Positions 8,197-64,000 of a DNA stretch of 64,000 nt are shown here, one piece after another. The notes beneath the pieces are model-generated. The model was not told where the DNA came from. It saw only the letters and a list, made by a program, of their open reading frames with translations, and did no database searches. The DNA lies in contig CM059432.1 in NCBI GenBank assembly GCA_030390025.1, positions 77,440,001-77,504,000 on the forward strand. The letters are read 5' to 3'. The number at the start of each line of letters is the position of its first letter. Positions within the stretch are counted from its first letter, which is position 1. The stretch is from Squalus acanthias (lineage: Eukaryota). A program made the translations under genes and the position numbers.

Positions 8197-11100
8197 ACAT
8201 AGAAACATAGAAGATCGGAGCAGGAGTAGGCCATTCGGCCCCTCGAGCCTGCTCCGCCATTTAATGAGATCATGGCTGATCATCCAAATTCAGTACCCTG
8301 TCCCTGCTTTCTCCCCATATCCCTTGATCCCTTTAGCCTTAAGAAATATATCTAACTCCTTCTTGAATATATTTACTGACTTGGCCTCAACTGCCTTGTG
8401 TGGTAAAGAATTCCACAGGTTCACCACTCTCTGGGTGAAAAAATTCCTCCTCATCTCAGTCCTAAATGGCTTACCCCTTATCCTTAGACTGTGACCCCTG
8501 GTTCTGGACTGCCCCGCCATCGGGAACATCCTTCCTGCATCTAGTCTGTCTAGCCCTGTTAGAATTTTATAAGTTAGAAACATAGAAACATAGAAACTAG
8601 GAGCAGGAGTAGGCCATTCGGCCCGTCGAGCCTGCTCCACCATTCAATACGATCATGGCTGATCATCCAAATCCAGTACCCTGTCCCTGCTTTCTCACAC
8701 AGAATCCCCATCGAGCCTGCACCGACACATATCCCACCCTATCCCCGTAACCCCACGTATTTAATTCCTCCTAACATATCCCATCCTATCCCTGTAACCC
8801 CACATATTTAATCCCCCCCTAACACTAAGGGTCAATTTATCATAGCCAAATCAACCTAACCCGCACATTTTTTGGACTGTGGGAGGAATGAGATCTCCTC
8901 TCATTCTTTTAAACTCCAGCAAGTATAAGCCCAATCGACCCAATCTCTCCTCGTACGTCATTCCTGCCATCCCAGGTATCAGTCTGGTGAATCTTCGCTG
9001 CACACCCTCCATGGCAAGAACATCCTTCCTCAGATAAAGCGACCAAAACTGCACGCAATACTCAAGAAGTGATCTCACCAAGGCCCTGTACAGCTGCAGC
9101 AAGACATCCTTGTTCCGGTACTCAAACCCTCTCGCTACGAAGGCCAACATACCATTTGCCTTCTTAACCGCCTACTGTACCTGCATGCTTACCTTCAGCG
9201 ACTGGTGCACAAGGACACCCAGGTCTCGTTGCACTTCCCCTTTACCCAATCTATTGCCATTCAGATAATAATCTGCCTTTCTGTTTTTGCCACCAAAGTG
9301 GATAACCTCGCATTTATCCACATTATACTGCATCTGCCATGCTTCTGCCCAATCACCCAACCTGTCCAAATCATACTGCAGTTTCTCTGCATCCTCCTCA
9401 CAGCACACACGCCCACCCAGCTTTGTGTCATCTGCAAACTTGGAGATATTACATCTAGTTCCCTCGTCTAGATCATTAATATATATATAGTGAATAGCTG
9501 GGGTCCTAGGACCGGTCCCTGCGGAACCCCACTAGTCACTGCCTGCCACTCAGAAAAAGACCTGTTTATTCCAACTCTTTGCTTCCTGTCTGCCAACCAG
9601 TTCTCTATCCAAGTCAATACCTTGCCCCCAATTCCATGTGCCTTCACTTTACACGCTAATCTCTTATGTGGGACCTTATCGAAAGCCTTCTGAAAGTCCA
9701 AATACACCACATCCACTGGTTCTCCCTTATCTATTCTATTAGTTACATCCTCAAAAAATTGCAGTAGATTAGTCAAGCACGATTTACCTTTCGCAAACCC
9801 ATGTTGACTTTGTCCAATCCTGTCACTGTTTTCCAAGTGCTCTGCTATTACATCTTTTATAATGGACTCTAGCATTTTCCCCACAACCGATGTCAGGCTT
9901 ATAATTCCCCGTTTTTTCTTTACCACCCTTTTTGAACAGTGGGGTAACATTAGCTACCCTCCAATCCATGGGAACTGTTCCAGAGTCTATAGAATTTTGG
10001 AAGATGACCAGCAATGCATCTACTATTTCTAGGGCCACTTCCTTTATTACCCTAGGATGTAGATTATCAGGCCCTGGGGATTTATCGGCCTTTAATGCCG
10101 TCAATTTCCCTAACACCATTTCCCTACAAATACTGATTTCATTCAGTTCCTCCCTCTCATTAGACCCTATGTTCCTCGACATCTCTGGGAGGTTATTTGT
10201 GTTCTCCTTTGTGAAGACAGAGCCAAAGTATGTATTTAATTGGTCTGCCATTTTTTTGTTCCCCATTATAAATTCCCCTGATTCTGACTGCAAGGGACCT
10301 ATGCTTGACTTCACCAATCTTTTTCTCTTCACATATTTATAAAAGCTTTTACAGTCAGTTTTTATGTTCCCTGCAAGCTTACGCTCGTACTCTATTTTCC
10401 CCCTCTTAATTAATCCCTTTGTCCTCCTTTGCTGAATCCTAAACTGCTCCCAATCCTCAGGTTTACTGCTTTTTCTGGCCAATTTATATGTCCTCTCCTT
10501 GGATCTTATGCTATCCCTGATTTCCCTTGTCAGCCATGGTTGAGACACCTTTTTTGTTTTATTTTTATGCCAGACAGGGATGAACAAATTCTGTAGTTCA
10601 TCCATGCGATCTTTGAATGTTTGCCATTGCCTATCCACCATCAACCCTTTGAGTAACACTCCCCAATCTTTCCTACCCAACTCGCGCCTCATACCATCGT
10701 AGTTTCCTTTATTTAAATTCAGGACCCCAGTCTCTGAGTCAACTATTTCATTCTCCATCTTAATGAAGAATTCTATCATATTATGATCGCTCCGCCCCAA
10801 GGGGCCCCGCACAACAAGATTGCTAATTAATCCTTTCTCATTACATAATACCCAGTCTAAGACGGCCTGGTCTCTAGTTGGTTCCTCGACATATTGGTCC
10901 AGGAAACCATCCCGTATACACTCCAGGAATTCCTCCTCCACAGTATTGTTACTAATTTGGTTAGCCCAATCTATATGTAGATTAAAGTCACCCATGATAA
11001 CTGCGTGCCCTTATTGCACGCATCTCTAATTTCCTGTTTAATGCCATCCCCAACCTCTGCATTACTGTTTGGGGGTCTGTATACCACTCCCACTAACGTT

Positions 11101-11595
11101 TTCTGCCCCTTGGTATTTCTCAGTTCTACCCATACGGATTCCACATCATCAGAGCTAATATCCTTCCTTACAATTGTGTTAATCCCCTCTTTAACCAACA
11201 ATGCTACCCCAGCTCCTTTTCCTTTTTGCCTGTCTTTCCTGAATATTGAATACCCCTGGATGTTGAATTCCCAGCCTTGGTCACCCTGGAGCCATGTCTC
11301 CATAATCCCAATCACATCATATCCGTTTACCTCTATTAGCGCAGCTAATTCATCCACCTTATTACGAATGCTCCTCGCATTAAGACATAAAGCCTTCAGG
11401 CTTGTTTTTTTAACACTCTTAGACCTTTTAGAATTATTATTTACTGTGGCCATGTTTGATTTAAACTCTTGATTTCTCTGACTGTCACCTTTGCTTTTCT
11501 CCTTCCTGTCTTTTGCTTCTATCCTTGTTTCCCTTTCCTCTGTCTCCCTGCTCAGGTTCCCAATCCCCTGCCATTTTAGTTTAAACCCTCCCCCG
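8197..11595 (-). mobile_element. CR1 LINE: near-complete degraded ORF2, end of ORF1, 3' UTR and (ttctatgt)n tail; interrupted by a SINE
   Basis: Endonuclease start LKALCLNARSIRNK, ETWL and GDFN; RT motifs; ORF1 end ggggagggtttaaactaa (minus) near 11577-11593; tail acatagaaacatagaa at 8197. Confidence 0.95.
8576..8886 (-). mobile_element. 5'-truncated V-domain (HE1-like) SINE with CR1-derived 3' tail, inserted in CR1
   Basis: Shares its body with 13573-13879 and 34969-35395; the host CR1 continues across it (compare 28283-28325). Confidence 0.8.
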
Positions 11596-11757
11596 GGTGG
11601 GCACCAACCAGTGCCAAGCCTCGGAAAGATTTTTCTCAAAAGTGGCATCAGTATGAATGGGCGTATTGTAATGCAATGCAATTGATGAGATGACATCATA
11701 CAACATACTTACAATGCAGGAATGTGCTATAAAGTGCCATCACTGTTGAAACTCTTA

Positions 11758-31300: not shown

Positions 31301-33074
31301 GTAAAATTGAGCAAATGGCCCTTACATTTTAGATGTAACAAATTGCAATGTCTATGGCCCCAAAATTCCAGGAGTCCTGCTACTTTGGTGGAAGTGTGGT
31401 GGAGTGGACCTCTTGGCCACCCATGAAGAAAGAATCGGCTTATAACCCAAATGGCAAGGCAATCGGAGGGGTACCATGATTCTCCAGTTGCTGATCGAAA
31501 GCTTGGGAACGGCCGTAGAGAAACAACACAGCTTTTTCAAAAAATGATCCTAAGGGAGAATAGTGCCACTTAGGAAATGCAGTTGATCCACACTCAGATA
31601 GATTATCTTTGTCTGCAAAACATTTAGGGCCTTTTCAAGGATCTCAACAGAACTCCCACCTATACGCAGCTGGCAAGAGTTCTGTAGAGGTCTGAGAAGT
31701 GCGTAATAGGCAGAATTTCCAGGATAGCCTGGGAACTCCCCAGACACACCCCATAGACATGGGAGGGGTTGGCGGAACACTCGCCCACTCCTGCCCACCC
31801 CCCACCCCCCCAACAATTTCCTGGGCTTCTTAGAGGGTTACTAATTATACAAGTTGACTTCCTAACTCATTTTCTCACTCAGGCAAAGTGCTTCATTTTC
31901 CCTTGACACTTCAGTAGATAACAGTTGGCTAGGGTCAGATGTCCGCTTTTGCTAATTACTGTATGATGCAGTGTTTCAGCACACGAACTGAAAGTGGTAA
32001 GATTCTGGATTACATATGCGATCCCTTTCATAGTGAGTTTTCAATCCTCACTAGGTTGTCAGGTGAGGTACCAAGCAGATGTTATATGCTACCCCACAGA
32101 GACTGAAGAAAAATCAAAGGCAAGTCACCTATTTCATTCTCCTGAGACAACTGAATAGGCAAAAGCCTGTAAGATGGTTATCCGTTAGCCAGTTGACCAG
32201 AGATGGTGCATGACATAGGGAAACGAGGAGAAATATAAGGGTAGGTTCCACGCTCTCGTGCTGCCAGCAGGAAGCAACACTTGAAAGGATTCAGAGAGAG
32301 GGCTACAACACTGTAACATTGATTCATCGACCATTTGAGCGTAGGTTCCCAACGGGAGTGCTGGAGCTCTCAATTTTCCCTATAAAATAAAAGTGCTTTG
32401 GCTTTGCTGAACTTTAACCTAGCACCCTAGCATGGGCACTCCTATTGGATGAAATTATCTGAGACACAGTGATTGCAGTACACACTTCATACCAGCACCA
32501 AAATGTACTGGAGCTTCCACAAACTGATTGCACCATGTGCTAAGGCACAAATTTTACACCATGGGGTAAAAATTCAGTTGGTTGCGCCTCCCGTTAGCGC
32601 CTTAAGAGGGCGCTAATGGGGCGCAAAGCCGCTAGCACCCGGGCGCAGCGATGTTTGCGCCGCTCGGGAACTTAACTAGACATTGTGCGGCGGCGCTAAA
32701 CCTTACCGCTGCGACCACCTGCGCGCGCAGATTGTGACGTCATTCCATGGTGCAACGCCCTTGTGGCGCCCCGGAGCGGAAATTGAGTGGCGCCCCCTGC
32801 TTTACCGCCTGGCGCATCCAACGACCGGAAGACTGGAACGCTATCAATCGCTGTGGGGCTGGGGGGGGGCGCTATTTAAAGGGGGCCTCTTCCTGTCTTT
32901 TTCTGTGGTTGACATTTTTGCACCACTCGTTCTGAGAGAGAGAGAGAGATTCGGAGAGAGAGAAAGAGAGACTTCTGCATTGAGTCAACGCTTTGTGAGG
33001 TAGTTTTGCCTACTGATCCTAACTTCGCTGCTACTTTGGTTGCTGTCCTTCATAACTTTGCTTGCAAAGAGACT

Positions 33075-34259
33075 ATGGGGGCTGCACTGATTGGGGGCGT
33101 CGTCCTGCTCCAGCTGAATCGGAGGACACAGAGACGCAGAGAGAGAGTGGCAATGATGGCCAGACGGAGGAGGGCCAACAGGCGTATGTACAGGAGAGCT
33201 TACCCTCCCAGGGTATATCGTGAACAGCTCTCCTACATTCATATGTCTGAGGAGCTGTGTTTGCGAAGGCTGCGATTCAGCAAGGAGGTGGTCACTGAGC
33301 TCTGCCACCTGCTGCAGCCAGATCTGCAGCCTCAACTGAGGTCCAGGACGTCTCTGTCGGTGGCAGTGAAGGTCACAGTGGCTCTCAACTTCTATGCTAC
33401 TGGCTCATTTAAAGCTGCTGCTGGGGACCTCGCCAATATCTCCCAGTTCGCGGTGCATTGCTGCATCCGGCAGGTCACAAATGCCCTCTTTAAAAGGAGA
33501 CGAGAGTTCATCTCTTTCCCCATGACCCCAGACAAGCAGCGTGACCGCGCTCTGGGCTTTGCGAGGATAGCGGGCTTCCCCATGGTGCAGGGCGCCATTG
33601 ACTGCACGCATGTGGCTTTGCGTGCTCCACATGAGAATGCCGAGGAATTCCGGAACAGAAAGGGGTTCCATTCCTTGAATGTTCAGTTGGTCTGTGACCA
33701 CAGACAGCTGATACTCGCTGTCAATGCCCACTATCCTGGCAGCTGCCACGATGCTTTCATCCTGCGCCAGACTACTGTGGCAGAACTTTTCGAGGCACCG
33801 CATCAGCCAGTTGGTTGGCTTCTCAGGGACAAGGGGTATCCATTGAGCACCTGGCTGATGACACCGCTCCGTACGCCCAACACCCCTGCTGAGCTGCGGT
33901 ACAATGAGAGCCATCAAGCTACCAGGAACATCATTGAGCGCACAATCGGCGTGCTGAAGTAACGGTTCCGCTGTCTCGACCATTCTGGAGGAGCCCTGCA
34001 GTACTCGCCTGAGCGAGTATCCAACTTCGTAGTTGTGTGCTGCATGTTGCATAACATGGCAATCGTCAGGACCCAGCCAATGCCACCAGGCCTTGGAGCA
34101 CCACCAGAGGAGGAGGAGGAAGAGGAGGAAGAGGACGAGGAGGATGATCATCAGCAGCACCAAGGCGGGAGGGCGGCCCACAATGGTGAAACTGCAAGGG
34201 CCGTCTGTCAACGGCTGATAGCAAGCCGCTGCTGTGGAAATGGCTTCTGCCATTGCTAA
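33075..34259 (+). pseudogene. Harbinger (HARBI1-like, DDE_Tnp_4) transposase with one in-frame stop at 33960-33962
   Basis: [41 protein letters not shown] and RNIIERTIGVLK*RFRCLD; the same frame continues through CCMLHN to 34259. Confidence 0.93.
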
Positions 34260-34536
34260 CAACATCAATGAACCCAGCACGCAACCCCTAAGCCGGCCAA
34301 GGCACCAATGATTCCAAACACCAAACATGTATATTTTGAATACAAAAACTTATTTATTTTACAAACTCTGTGTGTGTCATTTCCTCATGACAAACTCATA
34401 GAAATAAACACAAAAAAACAGTCATTAACATAACTGGTTCTCACAACCTGGAGATAATGTCCAAAACACTAGACAAAAGTTGGACCACGAACCTCGGCCT
34501 TTAATAAAAAAAATGACCAGCATTTTGTCACACCTC

Positions 34537-36780
34537 CTACTTTTTGCCCTTCGAGGGTGATCTCCTTCCCTTGCGCACTTCCCCCCTTCTAACCCTACTG
34601 CTCCTCCGTAATGGGACCTCAGTGGCTGCAGCAAGGCTGGTGGAAGGCTGCTGATCGTCAGACCCTGACACTGCAGATGCCCCTGAAGGACGGCCTCGAC
34701 CAGTTCTGGGCCTGGAGGGCCCGGCTGCAGACTGCACCAACTCTGCATGGGCGGCAGCAGTCTGTCCTACAGGCGGTGGCAAGTGCAGTGGAGAAGTGAC
34801 AGTGTTGGCAGCAGGAATGCTGTCATCGTGAGAGAGGACAGCAACTCCCTGCTCGCCCAACACACTGGCACTCCCACGGGGCAGCACTTCAGCATCCGGA
34901 GCAATCTGCTGGAGCACAGATTGCTGGCCTGCTGCGGCGCGGTGAGAGCCCCGGGGACATGTGAACGAACATAGAAACATAGAAACATAGAATCTAGGAG
35001 CAGGAGTAGGCCATTCGGCCCGTCGAGCCTGCTCCACCATTCAATACGATCATGGCTGATCATCCAAATCCAGTACCCTGTCTCTGCTTTAATCCCCACA
35101 GTACACATATCCCACCCTACCCCCGTAACCCCACGTATTTAATTCCCCCTAACATATCCCATCACCCCACATATTTAATCCCCCCCTAACACTAAGGGTC
35201 AATTTATCATAGCCAAATCAACCTAACCCGCACATTTTTTGACTGTGGGAGGAAACCGGAGCACCCGGAGGAAACCCACGCAGACACGGGGAGAATGTGC
35301 AAACTCCACACAGACAGTCACCCGAGGTCAGATTCGAACCCGGGTCCCTGGCGCTGTGAGGCACCAGTGCTAACCACTATGCCACCGTGTTGCCCTATCG
35401 AGGTTGGCAGCAGTCAGTGCTCGCGTGGCCTCAATCTGAGTCTGCATGAGAGCAGTCAGAGATGGGATCACGGCAGTCAGTGACTGAATTGCAGCACTAA
35501 GCGTTAGTGTGGCATCCGCCTGTGCTACAGCGAAGTGCTCCACACTCCTTGCCAGTGACTCAATGCATTCGGGCACCCTTCCCACTGCACCCATGAGCTC
35601 AGTGTGCATGCCCACCGCCTGGGTGTTCATTTCTGCGATCAGCCGCTCCTCCTCTGCGTCCATTGCAGTAGGAGTCTCTGGCATACTCTCCCTCTGGGGA
35701 GAAGGCCCCCGTTCTTCCCTACCCCCATGGCGTTGCTGCAGCCCGCTGGGTCCTGGAGCTTCACCCTCATCAGACCCTTCCCCCCTGCTCCCCTCCAGGG
35801 AAGGCGTGTTCCCAGTGTGGGCATGGGCTTCCTCGGGAGAGGGTGGCACTGATGCTCCGGCTTCCTCTTCCTCCTCGGCTGCAGCTTCACTCCCACTGGC
35901 AGCTTCAGGGCCCGTCTCCTCAGCTGGTGAATCACCATCTGAAAGCAGGGAGGTACAAGAGTGGCTTTAGCGTGAGGACAGACTGGCAGCAAGGGAGGAA
36001 TAAGTGCAGCGAGTTAGCAAGTTGGATTGAAAGTGTCAAAGGCTGGTGTTGTGAGGGACAAGTGGAAGGACAGAGGACAAAAAGGTGATGACCTTACCAT
36101 TGCTGTCCAGAACGGGGTCGGCGTCTCCAGTGGCGACGGGACCAATCACCCGGCTTGCCACAATCCTGTGGACGCGCTCCTCAAGATCGCTGAGGGGTTG
36201 CAGCTGAGGCCGCCCTCCACCTGTCCGTTGCTGCTGTCTCCTATTATGCGCCAGCTTGGCCTGCAAGAAAAAGGACAGCATCTGAGTAAATATACAGCCA
36301 TGGTCTTGCCTGATGTCCTCCCATAGGTGAATAGCCCTTACTGTATACAGCCATGGTCTTGCCTGATGTGCCTCCCATAGGTGAATAGCCCTTACTGTAT
36401 GCAAAGTGTGGAATGTGTGTGTGTGTTTCATGAAAGGGCCATAGGTGTTGGATGAGTGTTGTGCATTGGGGTTTTAAGACCCTCTGGCCATAGAGTGAGG
36501 TTGAGATGGAGGGATGGAGAGGTATTGAGAAAAAGCCACTCACCCTGACGACCCGAGTGAGGTCGTTGAACTTTTTGCGGCATTGAACATGGGTCCTGGG
36601 CACCATGCTCCTGGAGGAGACGCTCTGAGCCACCTCCCTCCACACTCTTCTGTACTCGTGTGGCAAAGGCCTCCTGCCACTCTCAGGGAAGAGTATACAT
36701 CTTCTGCGCTCCACCGCGCCAACCAGAGCATCCAAGGCCCGCTTGGTGAAGCACTGAGCTCGTTCTCTCACCCTCTCCAT
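34537..36780 (-). pseudogene. Harbinger Myb/SANT-like protein, 3 exons (36780-36544, 36260-36098, 35938-34537); exon 3 interrupted by a SINE
   Basis: RERAQCFTKRALDALV...W...RTHVQCRKKFNDL; AKLAHNRRQQQRTGGGRP; GT-AG junctions preserve frame (phase 0 then 1). Confidence 0.88.
34969..35395 (-). mobile_element. Full-length V-domain (HE1-like) SINE with CR1-derived tail
   Basis: Head gggcaacacggtggcatagtggttagcac; B box gggttcgaatc; V domain; tail nearly identical to 8576-8692. Confidence 0.9.
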
Positions 36781-37322
36781 CCTTGGCAGCAAAATGGATT
36801 CACAGGTCTCTCCAGGCCGAGATTCAAGGCTGCAATGAGCAGGGTGTGGCTGCGGAGCAAGTTGGCCCCCCCCGCTTTAAGAACTGGCCGGCGCCAGTGT
36901 GTCTGTGTTCCCTCGCTAACTGGCAGCACCTGCGCTGCGCTCGCGCGCTGAGTTAGCGCCTCACTGCTCGGCCTTTGCGCCTTAAGACAGGTGTGCAGCG
37001 CCTGACTTAGCGCTCCACTCACCTCCCGGGGCGGTAAAAGTGAAGTTTCCAGTCAGTGGCGATAATTAGCGCCAGGCGCTAATATTTGCGTCCAGACGAT
37101 ATTTACGCCCCAAACGGGGCGCGACCTAATTTTTCCCCCCATGTGTCTTAACTCAGAGGTATTTTTTAGGGCAGCAGGTGTCATAGCTGCGACCCTCAGG
37201 CCATATGCAGTCTCAAACACTGTCAATCTGGCTCTCACAGCACAAGAAACGTAGTCCTAATTGCATTTATACTTTGCATTTTCTCATCCGTCCTGTTTGA
37301 ATTTTGTATACTTGGACATTTG

Positions 37323-55288: not shown

Positions 55289-56066
55289 AAGGCTGTAATG
55301 AGGTTTGGAGCCGAATGGTCCTGGCGGAATCCAAACTGAACATCGGTGAGCAGGTTATTGGTGAGTAAGTGCCATTTGATAGCACTGTCGACAACACCTT
55401 CCATCACTTTGCTGATGATTGAGAGTAGACTGATGGGTAGCAATTGGCCAGATTGGTTGTGTCCTGTTTTTTGTGGGCAGGACATACCTGTGCTGTTTTC
55501 CACATTGTCGGGTAGATGCCAGTGTTGTAGCTGTACTGGAACTGCTTGGCTAGAGGCGCGGCTAGTTCTGGAGCACAAGTCTTCAGCACGGGATATTGCT
55601 GGGGTCCATAGCCTTTGCTCTATCCAGTGCACTCAGCCATTTCTTGTTATCTCTTGGAGTGAATCGAATTGGCTGAAGACTGGCCTCCATGATAGTGCGG
55701 ACCTCAGGAGGAGGCCGAGATGGATCATCCACTCGGCACTTCTGGCAGGTTATTGATAGCATTCCCACCTGTGAGTCAGAGGTGACGGGTTCAAACACTG
55801 CTCCAAACAGTCTTGGCAAGTGGAGACCAGAGCTCTGGCTCTGAATTCTGGGTTAACACCCAATGAGATACTTGCATCTGGTGTGTGTGGGTGGCCTACC
55901 ACTCATCATATGGTTTGTGGGACACCATAAAATCCTCCCCACATATAGGACTAACCACACTAACGGCTGGTATAAAAATGATGCGGAGATGCCGGTGTTG
56001 GACTGGGGTGGACAAAAATGAGAAGTCGCACAACACCAGGTTATAGTCCGACAGATTTATTTAAAA

Positions 56067-56104
56067 TTACAAGCTTTCGGAGCTGTTGCCCCTTCGTCAG
56101 GTAA
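56067..56104 (-). ncRNA. Minimal type I hammerhead ribozyme, intact core
   Basis: ttac-CTGACGA-a-ggggc-aaca-gctcc-GAAA-gc-TT-gtaa; palindromic AAGCTT in place of stem III. Confidence 0.8.
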
Positions 56105-56421
56105 AGGTACAATGAGGGAATCTACAATATTACACAGTATATAAACACAGAAAGCAATTTGTCAGGGAGGCATTACATCAAAGACACACCAGAGCACAGC
56201 CAAGACAATGAGATGGGTCACAGGGGGTCCAACGTGTCAAATCCTGCTGTCTGCAGTTGAGCTTTTAACCTTTTTTTTGGTGTTTTTTTTTAAAAACTGG
56301 AAAGACAGACAACGATGTCGAGTCACGTTGTGTAGCGTGACATGAACCCGATATCCCTATTGAGGCCATCCTCATGGGTGCGGAACTTGGCTATCAGTTT
56401 CTGCTCGATGATTTTGCGTTG

Positions 56422-56961
56422 TCATGTGTCTCGAAGGCCGCCTTGGAGAACGCTAACCCGCAGTTCCGAGGCTGAATGTCCTTGGCTGCTGAAGTGTTCC
56501 CCGACTGGGAGGTAACAATCCTGCCTGGCGATTGTTGCGCAGTGTCCGTTCATACGTTGTCTCAGTGTCTGCATGGTCTCGCTGATGTACCATGCTCTGG
56601 GGCATCCTTTCCTGCAACGTATCAGGTAGACAACGTTGGCCGAGTCACATGAGTATGTACCATGTACCTGGTGGGTAGTGTCCTCACGTGTGATGATGGT
56701 ATCTGTGTTGATGATCTGGCATGTCTTGCAGAGGTTGCCATGGCAGGGTTGTGTGGTGTCGTGGTCGCTGTTCTCCTGACAGCTGGGTAATTTGCTGCGA
56801 ACGATGGTACTTTTGAGGTTAGGCGGCTGCTTGAAGGCGAGTAGTGGAGGCGTGAGGATGGCCTTAGCAAGGTGTTCGTCGTCATCGATGACATGTTGAA
56901 GGCTGCGAAGAACAAGGCGTAGTTTCTCCGCTCCGGGGAAGTACTGGACGACGTAGGACAC
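56422..56961 (-). pseudogene. Penelope GIY-YIG endonuclease fragment
   Basis: CHGNLCKTC, YSCDSANVVYLIRC...WYISET...LRQRMNGH and VGEHF. Confidence 0.88.
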
Positions 56962-57503
56962 CTACGGACACTGAAAGACGCCCTCATAAGAACGGGATAT
57001 GACGCTCGACTCATCGATCAACAGTTCCGACGGGCCACAGCGAAAAACCACATAGACCTCCTCAGAAGGCAAACACGGGACACAACCAACAGAGTACCCT
57101 ACGTCGTCCAGTACTTCCCCAGATCAGCGGGTTAGCGTTCTCCAAGGCAGCCTTCGAGACACACGACAACGCAAAATCATCGAGCAGAAACTGATAGCCA
57201 AGTTCTGCACCCATGAGGACGGCCTCAATAGGGATGTCGGGTTCATGTCACGCTACAGAACGTGACTCGACATCGTTGTCTGTCTTTCCAGTTTTTTTTA
57301 AAAAACACAAAAAAAAACCAAAAAAAACCCAAAAAAAGGTTAAAAGCTCAACTGCAGACAGCAGGATTTGACACGTTGGACCCCCTGTGACCCATCTCAT
57401 TGTCTTGGCTGTGCTCTGGTGTGTCTTTGATGTAATGCCTCCCTGACAAATTGCTTTCTGTGTTTATATACTGTGTAATATTGTAGATTCCCTCATTGTA
57501 CCT

Positions 57504-57541
57504 TTACCTGACGAAGGGGCAACAGCTCCAAAAGCTTGTAA
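57504..57541 (+). ncRNA. Hammerhead copy with GAAA>AAAA core mutation at 57530, probably inactive
   Basis: ttac-CTGACGA-a-ggggc-aaca-gctcc-AAAA-gc-TT-gtaa. Confidence 0.7.
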
Positions 57542-57753
57542 TTTTAAATAAATCTGTTGGACTATAACCTGGTGTTGTGCGACTTCTCATTTTGGTATAA
57601 AAATGGTTCAGGTTATGAAAGGAGAATTAATGTCACAGACTGTTAATCAGCTTACGAATTCTTCCAGTACTTCACACAATTCTCCAAGGGTAGGGTGTTG
57701 AGATACAAAAATAACAACAATATATGAGTAAAAAATTAATATCATAATCCAGA

Positions 57754-59208
57754 TCAAAACAGCAAATTCAGCAAAGTGTCAAAGCCTTTGGGAGGGAGGG
57801 GAAGAAATTTGGTGAAGAAAAAGATGAGATGAGTGGTGAGGTGTTTGTTACTTATCCAGGACGGAACCAAACCTTGTTTTAAATCCTCCAAATTACTGCG
57901 GCCCTCGCCCAGTAACCACGCCCCGTAAAGCACGCACACCTCGTTCTGCGCAGCTTGATCGGATGCATTCCGATCTTCCCTAATCAGGGCATTTACCGTC
58001 TTTGCATGTTTCTCCAACTCTGCTATAATTTCCTTTAAATGGAGAGTCATGGCTTGGTCCTCGTGTAAACCTGACCCTACCACTTTATTCTCATCTGTTA
58101 GAATGTCTTTTAATTGTGTCTTTAAACCATTAATCTGGGTCTGCAGCTCCACACTGTCTAGAGCGTTGACCACAGATGTACCCGTGTTAAAAGCAGTGAA
58201 CGCATCGTTCACCAAACCCCTTCTTTGCCTCCCTGCTTGATTCAGAACTTCCTGTGGTGCGGTGTACAAACTTGTTTTATCAATTTCCGCGAAATCGAAT
58301 TCGTAAAATTGTCTGAACATCTTGGTCAACAGGACCTGATACAACTGTTCCGTCTTTTTGGGGCACCACTCTGGTAACCACACCTCGGTGAGATTTAAAA
58401 TCACCGAGGCCACCGCGTAATGTACTCCCTGAAATAGTATCTGGTCTGTGGGGACCAGTACCAAACCATTCCCGGGTCCCTTACTAGTTTTAGGGCACCC
58501 TTCTTCCTCAGCTAGAACCACCGGAATCGTGGGCGGGGCTTTGCGTGGGCACGTAATGAGCTCAGTGGCATTTACTGGGATCGGGGAGAATGGGGCTCCG
58601 CACCCCCTGGTGCTCGCATCCCACCTCATCCCCTGTCCGTTATCCTGCCATTGATTAATGAAAAATATGGAGATGCCTTTGGGGCAAACGTACTTTGACC
58701 CCCACATACATACATAAATTCCCTCGTCCGGTTCCCACCATTTGTCCCAACAGACTTTCACTTGTCCGTTTGTCCCCGTAATTGTCCGATGGGTATTATT
58801 ACCCAGTCGTTCCCACTCGACCGAAGAGTTCCTCATAGTTTTGCTCAGCTTTCGCAGCCACCACCATCGGCTCAATGGGACCTTCCCACTACAAGTCAAA
58901 CAAATCCGTTTGCCGACGGTGACGCTAATCCTGGGTGCGATGATCCTTACTTTGGGGCACATTAAAGAAGTCTCTTTGTAGGCAAACCCCGATGTGCTAG
59001 AATACTCCGTTGAGTTCGTTCCCAGCCATCCTGGCCACCTTCCCTTGTGGAAATAGGTGCTGGTCTCCTCTGCCTCCCGTCTTCCGGTCCCATCCATCGC
59101 GATGGGGGCCGTGTCCCCGGAACATCCAAACACCACGACATCCTTGGTGCGGCCTCGATAGGCCAATCCACATCCGATTGCCACGAGCAATACTAGAATT
59201 CGTTCCAT
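57754..59208 (-). CDS. env: Envelope glycoprotein: signal peptide, Ig-like domain, furin site, F-type fusion subunit; C-terminally truncated
   Basis: MERILVLLVAIGCGLA; CLTC...WWW...DEGIYVC; N-glycosylation sequons (NST, NSS, NNT, NAT, NLT, NAS); RQRR|GLVNDAFTAF followed by heptad repeats. Confidence 0.8.
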   Translation of the reverse strand: MERILVLLVAIGCGLAYRGRTKDVVVFGCSGDTAPIAMDGTGRREAEETSTYFHKGRWPGWLGTNSTEYSSTSGFAYKETSLMCPKVRIIAPRISVTVGKRICLTCSGKVPLSRWWWLRKLSKTMRNSSVEWERLGNNTHRTITGTNGQVKVCWDKWWEPDEGIYVCMWGSKYVCPKGISIFFINQWQDNGQGMRWDASTRGCGAPFSPIPVNATELITCPRKAPPTIPVVLAEEEGCPKTSKGPGNGLVLVPTDQILFQGVHYAVASVILNLTEVWLPEWCPKKTEQLYQVLLTKMFRQFYEFDFAEIDKTSLYTAPQEVLNQAGRQRRGLVNDAFTAFNTGTSVVNALDSVELQTQINGLKTQLKDILTDENKVVGSGLHEDQAMTLHLKEIIAELEKHAKTVNALIREDRNASDQAAQNEVCVLYGAWLLGEGRSNLEDLKQGLVPSWISNKHLTTHLIFFFTKFLPLPPKGFDTLLNLLF

Positions 59209-59496
59209 CCTTCCTTGGTTCCTGTGATCAGATAGAATGAGGTAGCCAGCCTCGCAAGAGTCTCTGGCTTTTGTGAAGGGTGAGCGGGTCCCCTGACCTC
59301 GCCTCACGTAAACTTCAACGTTCGCTGAATAAACTTTAACTAAACCTATCTTTAAAGCTCCCATCATTTTATCGTTTTCTGTTAAAAACACTACAATCTT
59401 AACCTTATCAAAAAACTATAAACTTAACCTTGAACTATTAACTTAAAACTTAAAACTTATAACTTTACAGTGCCGCCCGTTCTCAGGGCGGCCCCT

Positions 59497-60618
59497 TTAA
59501 ATTCTGAGAAGGCTGCTGCGAGCTCTTCCCGACGGTGGGAGGGCACTGACCCTTCCCTCTGATCTGCCGCAGCCTGTTGCTGCTGCGATGTGGCCGGCCT
59601 GTATCTGGGTTATCTTAACCTTAACTCTACGCCTTGGGGCAGTCTGGGGACATGACCACATCCTCCTGGGCTGGGGTTCTCTACTTGACCTACGGGGAGT
59701 TGCTATGGGCGGGGGTTCCGTGACGGACGGACCGGGTTCCGAGACTTCCATCGGGATGACCTGGGGTTCCATCACAGTCGCTGGCTCCGCCTCCGCTGAC
59801 TCCGCCTCCCTAACCTCGGGGCTTGCAGTTTGTGGCCCCGCCCTGCTTGGCCCAGCAGGTGGCCCTTCACTCGTGATCTCTGCCTCCCCCAAGGACGGGA
59901 CGTTCAAAGCGGGCGGCCACATCTCTGGGAGCCACACCGGTACTCTCTGTGCTCCCATAGCGGCTGGCCCTGCCTCCCCTAGCTCCTCCCTCCTGTCTTC
60001 GGGACCTGCAGCTTGTGTGTCCACCCTGTGTGGATCTCTACCTGCAGCCCCCGTCCCCTCCATATCGTAAATGGGACCGTTCCTGAGAAACCACCCGTCG
60101 TCATCACTATTCTCATCTGCACTGTCCTCATCTGACCCGGGTACCCTGAATTCTTCCTCATCTAACCCCCAATTCCAGAAAAACGCTGTCTGATCTTCCG
60201 GGATGTCCCCTCCCCTGATGCAAGCTGCTATGCCTGCCTGTGTGCCTTGTGGTCCTACCTGGGGCTGTGCTTTCCCACTGGCGGGATTTACCCCTGTAGT
60301 TTTCCCTTGCGCACCTGGCTGGTACAGTTTGCATTGGTTTACATCCTCATACTCCCGGCTTTTGGCTACCCTGTAGGCTGCTTTTATCTCTCTAAGCTGC
60401 CCTTCTAGCCTGAGCACGTCTAACTTTCCCATTGATCGGGCGTTCTCCTCCTGCAGGGCCTGCTCTCTAAGCTGCCCTTCCAGCCCATCTATTTTCCCTA
60501 TTAAGCGGGCGTTCTCCTCCCGCAAGGCCTGCTCTTTTAACCTGGCCTCCTCACCGCAGACCCCCTCCTGTGCGTGTCTTTTAAAAGGACACAGGTAGGC
60601 AGGCTGCGTGGGCTCTAG
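59497..60618 (-). CDS. Unknown ORF in frame with gag (coiled coil, acidic/Trp patch, Pro/Glu-rich, basic tail); predicted readthrough extension
   Basis: Open from the codon after the gag TGA (LEPTQPAYLCPFKRH...) to TAA at 59497; the ORF-track start is TTG, and the first ATG is about 60 codons in. Confidence 0.65.
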   Translation of the reverse strand, partial: LEPTQPAYLCPFKRHAQEGVCGEEARLKEQALREENARLIGKIDGLEGQLREQALQEENARSMGKLDVLRLEGQLREIKAAYRVAKSREYEDVNQCKLYQPGAQGKTTGVNPASGKAQPQVGPQGTQAGIAACIRGGDIPEDQTAFFWNWGLDEEEFRVPGSDEDSADENSDDDGWFLRNGPIYDMEGTGAAGRDPHRVDTQAAGPEDRREELGEAGPAAMGAQRVPVWLPEMWPPALNVPSLGEAEITSEGPPAGPSRAGPQTASPEVREAESAEAEPATVMEPQVIPMEVSEPGPSVTEPPPIATPRRSSREPQPRRMWSCPQTAPRRRVKVKITQIQAGHIAAATGCGRSEGRVSALPPSGRARSSLLRI

Positions 60619-62430
60619 TCATTGGGTACTATTAGACGGTCCTGCGGCACCTACGGGGCCGGTTGCGACCGCCACCTGTCCACGCGCATTCAAGATTAGA
60701 TTGCGCATGGCTCCTAACACTACTTCGAGGTCGTCAGGAGGGGTGGGTGCCTTAGCTTCCTTAGCCGGGACAGGCGCCTGGGCTCGGACCGCGGGATTTT
60801 TATCCTTGGAATCCTTCCAAGGGTTCCTGCAATGCTTGCGCCAGTGCCCTGTCTTCCCACACCCGTAACAAGCATTACCTGCCTGTGGGGCGCGATTACC
60901 CTCCTGATGCCACTCTCTTTGATACGGGGCTGCGGGTCGTACCTCATGTACTCTTCCCTTAAGGGGACGTGTTGCCATACCCCTTATATTGCGATATCCT
61001 AACGTGAGTCGATTCAAGACCGACTCTTCCGTAATGTTGGGGTCATTGGGATCAAACCATGCTTTTGCCTGCTCTCTGACGGCTGGTAAACTGTTGGCTA
61101 TTATGCACCTAAGCCAATGAGTTAAAGCGGTGCCTTCCACATCTTCGCGCTCTGGCGCACCTAGGCAGCTGCGCTCATAAACTGGCCACAGCCTGTCGGC
61201 AAAAACCTTCGGGGGTTCTCCCTCCATCTGCACTGTCTGTCCCACTCTAGCAAACGGACCTTCATCGTTCGCCCCCAACACTTCCAGGACCTCATCCCTC
61301 AATTCCTCATAAGTCTTGGTTCCCCTCTTGCTCTCGCCTGAGAGACACTGAAGAACCGAGCTGTCTAGTGAGAACAGCAGCATTTTTGCTGTCTCCCCAT
61401 CATCGCAGCCGTTAATGGCTGCGGCTTGCTCAACTTCTCTGAAATGTACGGAAGGGTCGTCTGACTCGGTCAGCTTCCGTACGTGATTTATCATAGCTCT
61501 CAGCTGGTGTGAGCTGTGAGGCAACACCAGCTGTCCGAGGAGATCCCCCGGTTCTTCCCCACCGTTTCTGTTTGGGCCCCTTTTAATGCCCGTTACTGGA
61601 TACAACGGTCCCTTTCCTACTTCTTTTTCAATGGGCTCTTTTGTTTCTTCCATTGCTTCCTCCCTTACCCAGGTTTCCGAATAGCTGGGTGGCGCGGAGG
61701 GCGCAGTGGCTACTACTTCTTCTGCTTTGCTTGGTGGGGATTTCTTAAACTTCTCACTTACTAGCGGCTGGTGTGCTGACGGACTGATCAGGCACACCAT
61801 GCCGTTCGCTTTGTTTACGGCCTTCTTGAGGTGCTCTATCTCCCTTTGGCAGGCGCTATGGTCGGCTCCCTCAAACTTATCCTCAAGGGCCAACTTATAT
61901 GCCGCCCTAACCCCCGTTAAGCTCTCTTCTTGAGTTCTTATCTGGGCAGCTTGGCGGTTACATCTTTCCTTTAACCTGCTCTCATTCAACTTTGCCTCAG
62001 TGACCTGGCACTCGAGATAATCTATTCTTGTTTTAAGGTGACTGGAGATTTCCTGGCTTTCTTGGTGCAACTCATTTAACTTCTTAATGAGCACTTCCCC
62101 TCCAGAAACCTTCTCATCCATTTCTCCCTCTAAATGACTGATTCGAGCTACTAGCGCTGTAATGGTCTGGTTTGAAATCTGAACCTGCCTTTTGTAACAC
62201 ATAAGCCAGACTGCTTTCTCAAGTGTCTTTCTATGTTCTTTACTATCTGTCCACCTTTCGGCTGCCTCTAGCGGGCTTTTATCCGCTAACAATTCACTTA
62301 TCCATTTCTTAGTTAAATTAACCTTTCCGAACACATAATCTGCTATCTTTTCCTGCATAACATTTCGTACAGTCATTCCAAAGTCTAACACACTACCCTC
62401 TCGCTGCCAGTGTCCTGCCGCGGTCGCCAT
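60619..62430 (-). CDS. gag: Gag polyprotein, 603 aa, intact
   Basis: Good Kozak context (aaaATGG); long coiled coil; PSAPPSY; MHR-like QMEGEPPKVFADRL; CYGCGKTGHWRKHC knuckle (60870-60829). Confidence 0.9.
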   Translation of the reverse strand: MATAAGHWQREGSVLDFGMTVRNVMQEKIADYVFGKVNLTKKWISELLADKSPLEAAERWTDSKEHRKTLEKAVWLMCYKRQVQISNQTITALVARISHLEGEMDEKVSGGEVLIKKLNELHQESQEISSHLKTRIDYLECQVTEAKLNESRLKERCNRQAAQIRTQEESLTGVRAAYKLALEDKFEGADHSACQREIEHLKKAVNKANGMVCLISPSAHQPLVSEKFKKSPPSKAEEVVATAPSAPPSYSETWVREEAMEETKEPIEKEVGKGPLYPVTGIKRGPNRNGGEEPGDLLGQLVLPHSSHQLRAMINHVRKLTESDDPSVHFREVEQAAAINGCDDGETAKMLLFSLDSSVLQCLSGESKRGTKTYEELRDEVLEVLGANDEGPFARVGQTVQMEGEPPKVFADRLWPVYERSCLGAPEREDVEGTALTHWLRCIIANSLPAVREQAKAWFDPNDPNITEESVLNRLTLGYRNIRGMATRPLKGRVHEVRPAAPYQREWHQEGNRAPQAGNACYGCGKTGHWRKHCRNPWKDSKDKNPAVRAQAPVPAKEAKAPTPPDDLEVVLGAMRNLILNARGQVAVATGPVGAAGPSNSTQ

Positions 62431-64000
62431 TTTCTGTAAGGGATTCTGACCCTGCGTGTCTCGCAGCCTGTGAGATTCACGCGGCTCTGTGCAGCCTGTA
62501 TGTCAGTGCGGGTCTAGGCCTTGTTGCCTGTTCTGGTCTCCAGCCAGTCTGGGAACACTAGACACACCTGTGAGTGGTTCGAATCACTCGCCCTTACGGT
62601 TCTAGACACTGGACTTAGATGCGAGAGCAGTAATGGAGATGAAACTCATGTAGACTCGGTTGAATGGTACGAAATGGAAAATCTTTATTGCATGATACTT
62701 AAGATTATGAAATACATGTCATAAGCACAGATTAATGACAGTACAATCTTACAAGCAGTTATATAGTCGATCTTAGGGAAACGAGGAACGAACGGCACAT
62801 AGTAAATAGGGGCACACATTACAAATATCCTTAATCCTTAAACCCTCCCCTATCAATATCTATCCTAACTAGATTCGTAGGATTTCGAGACTCATGCTCA
62901 CCACTCGTGATAACTCGGAGAAATTCCGAATAGCTGATCGGATGTTTTTCACCGCAGCACCCACGTGTCGGTCAGGAGATCTCCTGGTCCCACTTGTTTA
63001 CTTGCTTCTGCTGCTCCGGCTAGCAGGCTGGACCGTCTGCTGTGATGAAGACCTGTGTTGGTTGGTTTAACAGGTACTTTCCGAGCACAGTTGTCAATAT
63101 CATCGATGTGATATGTTCTTTGCAAGTTCGAAGAAGTCTTCCTGGCAAGGAAAACTTGGCTATTCGACCTACAGGCGCGGTCGGGATTTACTGACCGTGG
63201 CGATGGATATGGTCTTCCTCTCTTCTCATCTCATCTCATCTCATCTCGGGCCTTTGGTTCCGCTGCCAGTTACCAACATAGGTCTTCGTTACGCGACACG
63301 AGGTAGATCCGAATGGATCAGAAAGTTCAACAGTCTTTTTCAAAAAGGCAACAGGCAAGCAGGAGCCCGACTACGAGTACACAGGAGCAGCCACGAGGTT
63401 ACGAAATAAGATAAGAGCACAGGAGCAGCCACGATGATAAGAGTCGATCGGATAAGAGAAAGATGGACGGTTTGGAGCCTGCAATTATAGTGCAAAATCT
63501 TCCGTTTCCCGCCCAACCTTAATGTCCATTCTTTTGTTTAGGGTCTGGCGCTCAAATGTCTTGTATGGGTGATCTCCGTTCTTAATGGGTTTCGGGGCTA
63601 CTCGTAAATGTCTGAGTACCTGTTAATATTTCTCCCATTGTTAAATCGGTCGGTGTTCTCCCTGGAGGGGTTGTGGGGCTTCCAAGTGTTTTGTATAACT
63701 ACCTGCTAACGGCTCTCTCATCGTAGAGTCGTTGGGATTTTACATATTAATGTCTTTTGGATGGGCCCTTGATTACTCGGTACAATAGCTTTCATTTGTA
63801 CCTGGGAGACCGATTTCAGTATTTATGTGTATACTGCAAACCCATAATGTCTCGTGTATTATCTTCACTGTGCTGAATCTTAATCGATCTTGCACAAATG
63901 TTTATTGGAACGCCATCTTGTCTGCCTGTTGAAAAGTCTAGAATGTTCTGTCACGAGGTGCGGCGGCCATTTTACAGGCTGCTTGTGTCCACTTTAAACC

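Follow-up and report, generated by a model that had tools for sequence, protein, structure and literature searches.

A young, non-autonomous gag- and env-bearing retroviral satellite in Squalus acanthias with an exchanged cassette in place of pol

Described relatives and the shark locus

Several described retroviral systems each share part of the organization of a gag-X-env element that lies on the minus strand at 57754..64000 of a stretch of Squalus acanthias DNA (GenBank assembly GCA_030390025.1, contig CM059432.1, positions 77,440,001 to 77,504,000), whose full 64,000 nucleotides are called the window here. Snakehead retrovirus (SnRV) and the clade Huo, which includes CmiERV lineage I of the elephant shark, are alike in their reverse transcriptase (RT) motifs, cartilaginous-fish host and gag-pol-env order (PMC12193657, PMC6001957, PMC4422223, PMC7947760), and SnRV-like endogenous retroviruses (ERVs) have already been reported from a cartilaginous fish, the elephant shark (PMC4422223). 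However, SnRV has a non-coding leader between its primer site and gag as well as 3' accessory open reading frames (ORFs), whereas the shark family has a primer site that overlaps the gag ATG, an env splice donor that apparently lies within the long terminal repeat (LTR), and a Pol with a tail of ~280 residues.

Other relatives are comparable in their dependence on a helper. The mouse intracisternal A-particle (IAP) 1Δ1 element is also non-autonomous and amplified, carries an in-frame deletion that creates a Gag fusion, and needs helper enzymes (PMC6466679); its Gag-Pol fusion is reported in that review to act in cis. It has lost part of gag and has no env, whereas the shark satellite keeps a whole gag and an env, would need readthrough to make a fusion, holds a piece of another family's gag, and occurs in many helper backgrounds. 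Lokiretroviruses and zebrafish Bhikhari are comparable in a coiled-coil Gag, in non-autonomous gag-bearing derivatives and in an Env with a basic cleavage site, which in the shark family may likewise be F-like (PMC7947760; bioRxiv 2024.03.25.586437), but lokiretroviral RT motifs differ, the lokiretroviral Envs that we saw start at the F core without a 240-residue head (PMC7947760), and zebrafish Bhikhari-2 has neither pol nor env (bioRxiv 2024.03.25.586437). Chicken ENS-1/ERNI, with its pol-bearing partner ENS-3 near the ERV-L clade, is another young non-autonomous ERV with a coiled-coil Gag, yet the account available to us describes no retained env, pol-tail fusion or cassette exchange for it (bioRxiv 2024.03.25.586437). 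Recombination between autonomous and defective LTR elements is similar in that co-packaging and template switching mix copies (PMC6894440), but the systems covered there are plant and yeast elements without env, whereas in the shark a defined internal cassette moves, and its gag, env and LTR surroundings track the helper.

Each trait is thus known singly, be it non-autonomy of an ERV, a fusion created by in-frame deletion or recombination with a helper. Their combination in the shark, where roughly one copy in three has the mobile cassette and two independent cassettes share one tail motif, was not found in the literature searched, and neither was any account of the family or the cassette; Repbase, Dfam and most subscription journals lay outside that search. 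Three short DNA motifs were not found in the elephant-shark CmiERV supplement, nor were five peptide motifs in 300 of the 318 pages of the lokiretrovirus supplement, but line breaks may hide matches in both, which makes these negatives weak. A preliminary description of the locus had proposed a possibly undescribed chondrichthyan lineage; family and cassette do appear undescribed in the literature searched, although SnRV-like ERVs are known from cartilaginous fish.

The satellite, its helper and the origin of X

As the preliminary description stated, the element contains three long co-oriented ORFs, on the minus strand (603, 373 and 553 residues), and no nested insertion interrupts 57754..64000; the next longest stop-to-stop frame elsewhere in the window has 395 residues. 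The gag gene (60619..62430) encodes 603 residues and ends in TGA. X (59497-60618, 373 residues) continues in the gag frame, so that gag and X form one frame split by a single TGA in the context TGA-CTAG (60615..60621). This stop context is common to pol-bearing copies, in which pol occupies the gag frame, and it may allow readthrough. Both gag and X are stop-free as had been described. The stop-to-stop env frame (57754-59415, 553 residues), in contrast, is broken at 57839, and its last 27 codons read non-viral flank (57754..57838).

The slot where pro-pol belongs had been described as holding about 1.1 kb of unrelated open frame. A domain scan found no protease, RT, RNase H or integrase core in it, X had no homologues among proteins of 205-653 residues, and Pfam gave nothing over the cut-off for gag, X or env. 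Alignment to pol-bearing copies is more informative. The match between them and the window stops 32 nucleotides after the gag stop and resumes at the end of integrase, and the 245 nucleotides between these matching parts are absent from pol. In the most divergent X copy this insert is 88% identical over 224 nucleotides to the gag of a sister family, family C, and the window insert, part of which is duplicated, matches it at 78-81% over shorter pieces. Because the insert is absent from pol and matches family-C gag, X consists of the first ~11 pol codons (60587..60618), a captured piece from the coiled-coil region of family-C gag (60342..60586, holding an internal 75-nucleotide duplication), and the integrase end (NQCKLY) followed by a Pro/Ala/Gly/Glu-rich Pol tail of ~280 residues (59497..60341). 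It is therefore a pol remnant joined to a piece of sister-family gag rather than an unrelated frame. Two other identities for X were considered and rejected on this composition: an smc-like gene, since the coiled-coil piece is gag-derived, and an accessory gene of new origin.

Pattern searches of the genome that allowed up to two mismatches gave 1,099 matches to the gag-X junction and 2,169 to the gag-pol junction, and a single LTR-start pattern gave 5,509; these are pattern counts that possibly include unplaced duplicates. The ~1,100 X-junction and ~2,170 pol-junction copies establish that the pol-bearing partner anticipated in the preliminary description exists, and it shares not only LTR and gag with the satellite but also env. 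The first 20 primer-site loci on contig C1 hold 21 elements, of which 14 carry pol, six carry X and one has a cut gag, and the 10 closest of these 14 pol copies are 89-96% identical to the window at the DNA level in gag and tail-env. The cassette sits in about a third of copies.

X copies are also young. Both LTRs are complete in 14 of 18 stretches that were checked with their flanks (the rest are one assembly gap and three tandem halves). All 14 complete copies have their own distinct 4-bp target duplication, and their paired ~1.6-kb LTRs differ by 0-7 substitutions; the family also has a primer site and a polypurine tract, the latter about 440 nucleotides past the env stop. Ages of 0 to about 10 million years follow at 2.2e-10 substitutions a year for each site, a rate that is a guess here and is the one assumed in PMC4422223. 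Of the 25 copies closest to the window, 21 have an open gag, 21 an open X and 16 a full-length env frame. The satellite is thus a young, high-copy, non-autonomous element with its own gag and env; the claim that it supplies both capsid and envelope holds for the family, but env is not intact in the window copy.

Behind the same TGA-CTAG, helper pol encodes protease, RT, a tether, a second RNase H and integrase (Pfam RT_RNaseH, RNase_H and rve), and env lies downstream of pol. Among named sequences it is matched best by 'NYNRIN-like' proteins of frog and coelacanth, at 41-43%; skate and sawshark have named env relatives, and catshark, horn shark and, more distantly, frog have named gag relatives. 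Two sawshark proteins, 'Niban 1-like' and 'ZFP2-like' (P0004, P0005), include long env pieces and are probably gene-model chimeras.

An RT phylogeny had been suggested in the preliminary description. In a tree of 40 rows, from which five chosen rows without a full RT were dropped and which holds no named SnRV sequence, the helper splits from the Ty3/Gypsy rows at 100, but is given no firm place among the retroviral rows. By eye, in a published alignment from the lokiretrovirus paper, the helper motifs LDISNGFWSI, LPQGFHxSPxIFHQ and QYVDD match the SnRV row. DISNGFW and PQGFH occur there in the SnRV row only (3/3 matches each), and the two lokiretrovirus rows that we saw read PFGYxNSPA. We therefore name the helper SnRV-like by motif and not by tree.

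The satellite is not a separate lineage but a cassette exchanged among helper lineages. On trees of 26 gag, 26 tail and 24 env rows (12 pol and 14 X rows, two of them without env), the X/pol state changes at least eight, seven and six times, respectively, and X monophyly is rejected on the gag tree by the approximately unbiased (AU) test (p = 4e-31). Six X copies of different sub-lineages have inserts that diverge by 0.4-3.9% and gags that diverge by 1.5-12.5%. Because the insert is less diverged than the gags and X and pol copies interleave, the cassette must be younger than its backgrounds and have moved between them, and template switching between co-packaged RNAs is an established route for such mixing. 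Two points count against this result: the trees are quick ones with Shimodaira-Hasegawa-like approximate likelihood ratio (SH-aLRT) support, and eight of the 14 X rows are the window and seven near copies picked for their closeness. In this vertebrate germline a satellite-helper pair has left thousands of young copies as a record, and co-packaging and cassette-exchange rates should consequently be measurable from one genome.

A second cassette arose independently and likewise keeps the Pol tail in frame. Of 30 loci of family B, which was found by a search with distant gag, 12 continue into pol and 16 have a common mosaic deletion; in one more the mosaic deletion is interrupted by other sequence, and the last has a different deletion. 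What this cassette retains is one half of the protease, small pieces of RNase H and of integrase, and the tail. Its inner pieces are only ~70% identical to a family-B helper, to whose tail some copies are 91-94% identical, and its first junction is also present in a family-C copy, so the family-B mini-pol cassette appears to have moved between elements as well. Four family-B mini-pol copies (L083, L091, L094 and L095) have apparently lost most of env too, which gives them a Bhikhari-like layout.

Possible function of X and competing explanations

We consider it likely that the element belongs to a large ERV family with an SnRV-like RT and recent activity, as a non-autonomous member that borrows helper enzymes, whose X cassette moves by template switching, and that makes Gag-X by readthrough. 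It would make Gag and, in unbroken copies, spliced Env, and for protease, RT, RNase H and integrase it would depend on copies in its own family that carry pol; recombination and the new target duplications suggest such mobilization in trans. If satellite RNA is co-packaged with helper RNA, then template switching during reverse transcription could place the short X cassette into new gag, env and LTR backgrounds. Readthrough of TGA-CTAG would produce Gag-Pol in the helper and Gag-X in the satellite, and we propose that the Pol tail is kept because readthrough yields Gag-X.

Several observations suggest that X acts as a protein. Every cassette-specific join that was seen preserves the frame, namely that of pol to insert, the 75-nucleotide duplication and at least three different joins of insert to tail, and so do three joins of the family-B cassette; after the stop, nine of the 17 family-B copies with the deletion stay open for 305-410 residues. 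Indels common to several copies are multiples of three in 5/5 cases in the tail and in 2/9 cases in the 3' untranslated region (19 and 13 of 23 rows anchored, respectively). Past the end of integrase, the family A, B and C tails cannot be aligned except for one common block, RRSxRxPQxxxxW (59656..59694 in the window), which is kept despite synonymous codon swaps that include TCN to AGC for serine and is retained in the 59-residue tail of a family-C copy. The Arg-to-Trp spacing of this motif resembles that from R522 to W530 in the acidic-patch anchor of CENP-C, and we take this likeness as a lead only. Tentatively, the motif might be a nucleosome-binding arginine anchor that aids integration of the satellite's own genome in a cis role comparable to that of the fusion protein of IAP 1Δ1, the nearest precedent. 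Two independent deletions that retain the same Pol piece would make it a candidate chromatin tether, one that is lacking in the related frog and coelacanth viruses.

Other observations point the other way. The ratio of nonsynonymous to synonymous substitution (dN/dS) among copies, which the preliminary description had suggested computing, is low for pol core (0.10) and gag (0.27-0.28) but reaches 0.75-0.92 for the insert and 0.83-0.95 for the tail, and values near 1 imply that there is no overall purifying selection on the amino acids of X. The constraint seen in tails may come from helpers because tails are exchanged, Pol of the frog and coelacanth relatives stops at integrase and is tailless, so that a tail is not a general requirement, and eight of the 17 family-B deletion copies have no open frame of at least 300 residues through the junctions. 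The dN/dS values and the exchange of tails, together with an env acceptor that lies ~280 nucleotides past the X stop, favor an account in which the same satellite-helper system operates but X has no protein role, the tail being kept for the nearby acceptor or for RNA signals and the frame by helper inheritance, RNA-level constraint or chance. We give this account somewhat less than an even chance; it must accommodate several cassette-specific joins that are in frame in both X and family-B cassettes and a motif conserved as protein that persists even in the short family-C tail. The fullest version of the protein reading is that shark SnRV-like retroviruses carry germline 'defective-interfering' cassettes that recombine between helper lineages and even families, with two independent origins, loss of all enzymes, and retention of a lineage-specific Pol tail that, fused to Gag by readthrough, holds the incoming genome to nucleosomes through its arginine-anchor motif and acts in cis. 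As a whole we regard this as rather unlikely.

The other explanations concern how copies arose and to which family they belong. X could have spread among integrated proviruses through ectopic gene conversion or unequal crossing-over instead of through co-packaging, given that ~3,000 similar proviruses offer many substrates and that tandem arrays exist at the window locus and at L042/L043. We find this improbable because the LTRs of each X copy are nearly identical and every such copy carries a target duplication of its own, the same X and pol copies group together whether the tree is of gag, tail or env, and the insert comes from a family that is ~30% diverged in pol, which fits template switching better. 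The family might instead be lokiretroviral, a group mentioned in the preliminary description, and the element a Bhikhari-like derivative that retains env. An F-like Env whose GP..G.VL start and distance to the furin site resemble the lokiretroviral Env by eye, a dual RNase H, the NYNRIN-like annotation of the best matches, foamy-like integrase matches and a coiled-coil Gag are all compatible with this, but the helper RT has snakehead-retrovirus motifs and differs by eye from the two lokiretrovirus rows. Moreover, sharks are not among the hosts listed in the portion of the lokiretrovirus paper available to us (PMC7947760), six cartilaginous-fish assemblies in its genome table lack the asterisk that apparently marks positives, and X is not the smc gene of some lokiretroviruses, its coiled coil being from gag; we judge this assignment quite unlikely. 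A one-off deletion or misassembly, finally, might be suspected from the truncation of the window copy and from its almost identical tandem neighbor. The two tandem halves differ at 14 sites, however, contigs of two other public runs cross the gag-X junction (X6 with 0 and X9 with 2 differences), and the 1,099 junction matches together with distinct target duplications in 14/14 complete copies exclude it for the gag-X layout, leaving its probability negligible.

Env, the remaining anatomy and the neighborhood

Env in whole copies has 783 residues from its ATG and a hydrophobic C-terminal stretch. In the window, residues 1-457 are present (57839..59208, ATG at 59208), beginning with a signal peptide (59161-59208) and including a furin site, RQRR (58219-58230), that is followed by the start of an F1-like part. 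An F-related env has support as a lead: in the ESM Atlas, the stretch from residue 290 to 800 in the frame of a whole copy scores 0.91 against the Baculo_F and Fusion_gly clusters, and in 4-10 cases out of 100 shuffled proteins attain this value too. There was no match of Env to PF00523. AlphaFold models of Env had a mean predicted local distance difference test (pLDDT) score of 32.9 alone and 31.6 with 13 rows, too poor for a fold test, and a viral-library search gave no meaningful match, so the F fold was not recovered structurally. Env may nevertheless be F-like. None of 52 candidate metagenome contigs held an env relative.

An immunoglobulin (Ig)-like head on Env is probable (about 58700-58935). 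The only region modeled at pLDDT ~50-70, residues ~95-170, matched antibody V domains (E = 0.002-0.008), and further hints are a DxGxYxC motif, Pfam Ig_3 (E = 0.32), CRTAM (E = 0.37) and Atlas values of 0.82-0.83. These results agree but are weak, and taken singly all of them stay below threshold. Foamy-virus Env and paramyxo/pneumovirus F, subclass Ib, offer a parallel in that an F scaffold accepts added receptor-binding modules (PMC11468914), and gamma-type Envs carry IgV-type receptor-binding domains, a case of Ig folds as retroviral receptor binders (bioRxiv 2024.03.17.585361). Neither source, as far as the available parts go, mentions a retroviral Env of F type that has an Ig head. If confirmed, an SnRV-like RT with an F-like, Ig-headed Env would extend F-type envelopes beyond foamy viruses and lokiretroviruses.

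Env is probably expressed from a spliced mRNA with its donor in the LTR (G/GTGAG, 62896..62901) and its acceptor (59221..59245) 13 nucleotides before the ATG. This is a single observation, a joint at 59220-62901 with CT..AC ends and a short side of 21 nucleotides in one contig of run X2, presumed to be RNA. No run is recorded as RNA, and X1, X2 and X6 were taken as RNA by guess.

The 5' LTR (62435..64000, TG...CA) is 1,656 nucleotides long and starts 90 nucleotides past the window end. It ends four bases 5' of the gag ATG, which, with the first gag codons, overlaps an 18-nucleotide primer-binding site (62412..62429) complementary to the 3' end of genomic tRNA-Arg(TCG) plus CCA. There is consequently no untranslated leader behind the LTR. 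The primer site occurs 2,835 times in the genome, and the overlap is found in 28 of 30 sampled loci, the exceptions being the two family-C loci. The 3' end of the family's primer tRNA itself has 431 genome-wide matches, and arrays with a period of ~1.62 kb on G000:C26, at about 39.0-42.2 Mb, contain it. Within gag a sequence pattern assigns an N-terminal coiled-coil region, and a CCHC knuckle lies at 60829-60870.

The window copy forms the downstream half of a pair arranged in tandem as LTR-internal-LTR-internal, and its 5' LTR doubles as the 3' LTR of the upstream copy. The halves are 99.66% identical (14 sites and three gaps differ over 6,167 nucleotides). Its env matches other copies only as far as 57839, where the best-scoring copies continue, and both the membrane anchor and the 3' LTR are absent. 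Another copy, L111, likewise stops early in env at a similar place. A secreted product of the truncated Env was considered and rejected, the truncation being characterized in the window copy only. Further tandem or nested proviral arrays are present at L113, L042/L043 and G000:C1:143657918-143673392, and three X junctions on C1 are spaced at 7.72 kb.

Tandem-repeat arrays occur in a flank of eight of the 25 closest copies (L004, L007, L013, L016, L017, L018, L023 and L024). L030 and L041 lie at the same position of the same ~67-nucleotide repeat on different contigs. Flanking repeats might be relevant if the tail motif guides integration.

Adjoining the env break, 56012-57596 contains nested inverted arms (277 nucleotides at 98% and 201 nucleotides at 93%), and a similar inverted pair is present in the upstream flank (L044 9312-9618). 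This element looks like a Penelope-type remnant; its 179-residue frame had no match in Pfam. Nine other frames in the window were scanned, and four match LINE (long interspersed nuclear element) endonuclease, DDE or Myb. A fragmented region at 32913-36876 carries a DDE_Tnp_4 frame on the plus strand and a Myb/SANT frame on the minus strand, presumably the gene pair of a PIF/Harbinger transposon, and frameshifted pieces of LINE endonuclease lie at 9826-11708.

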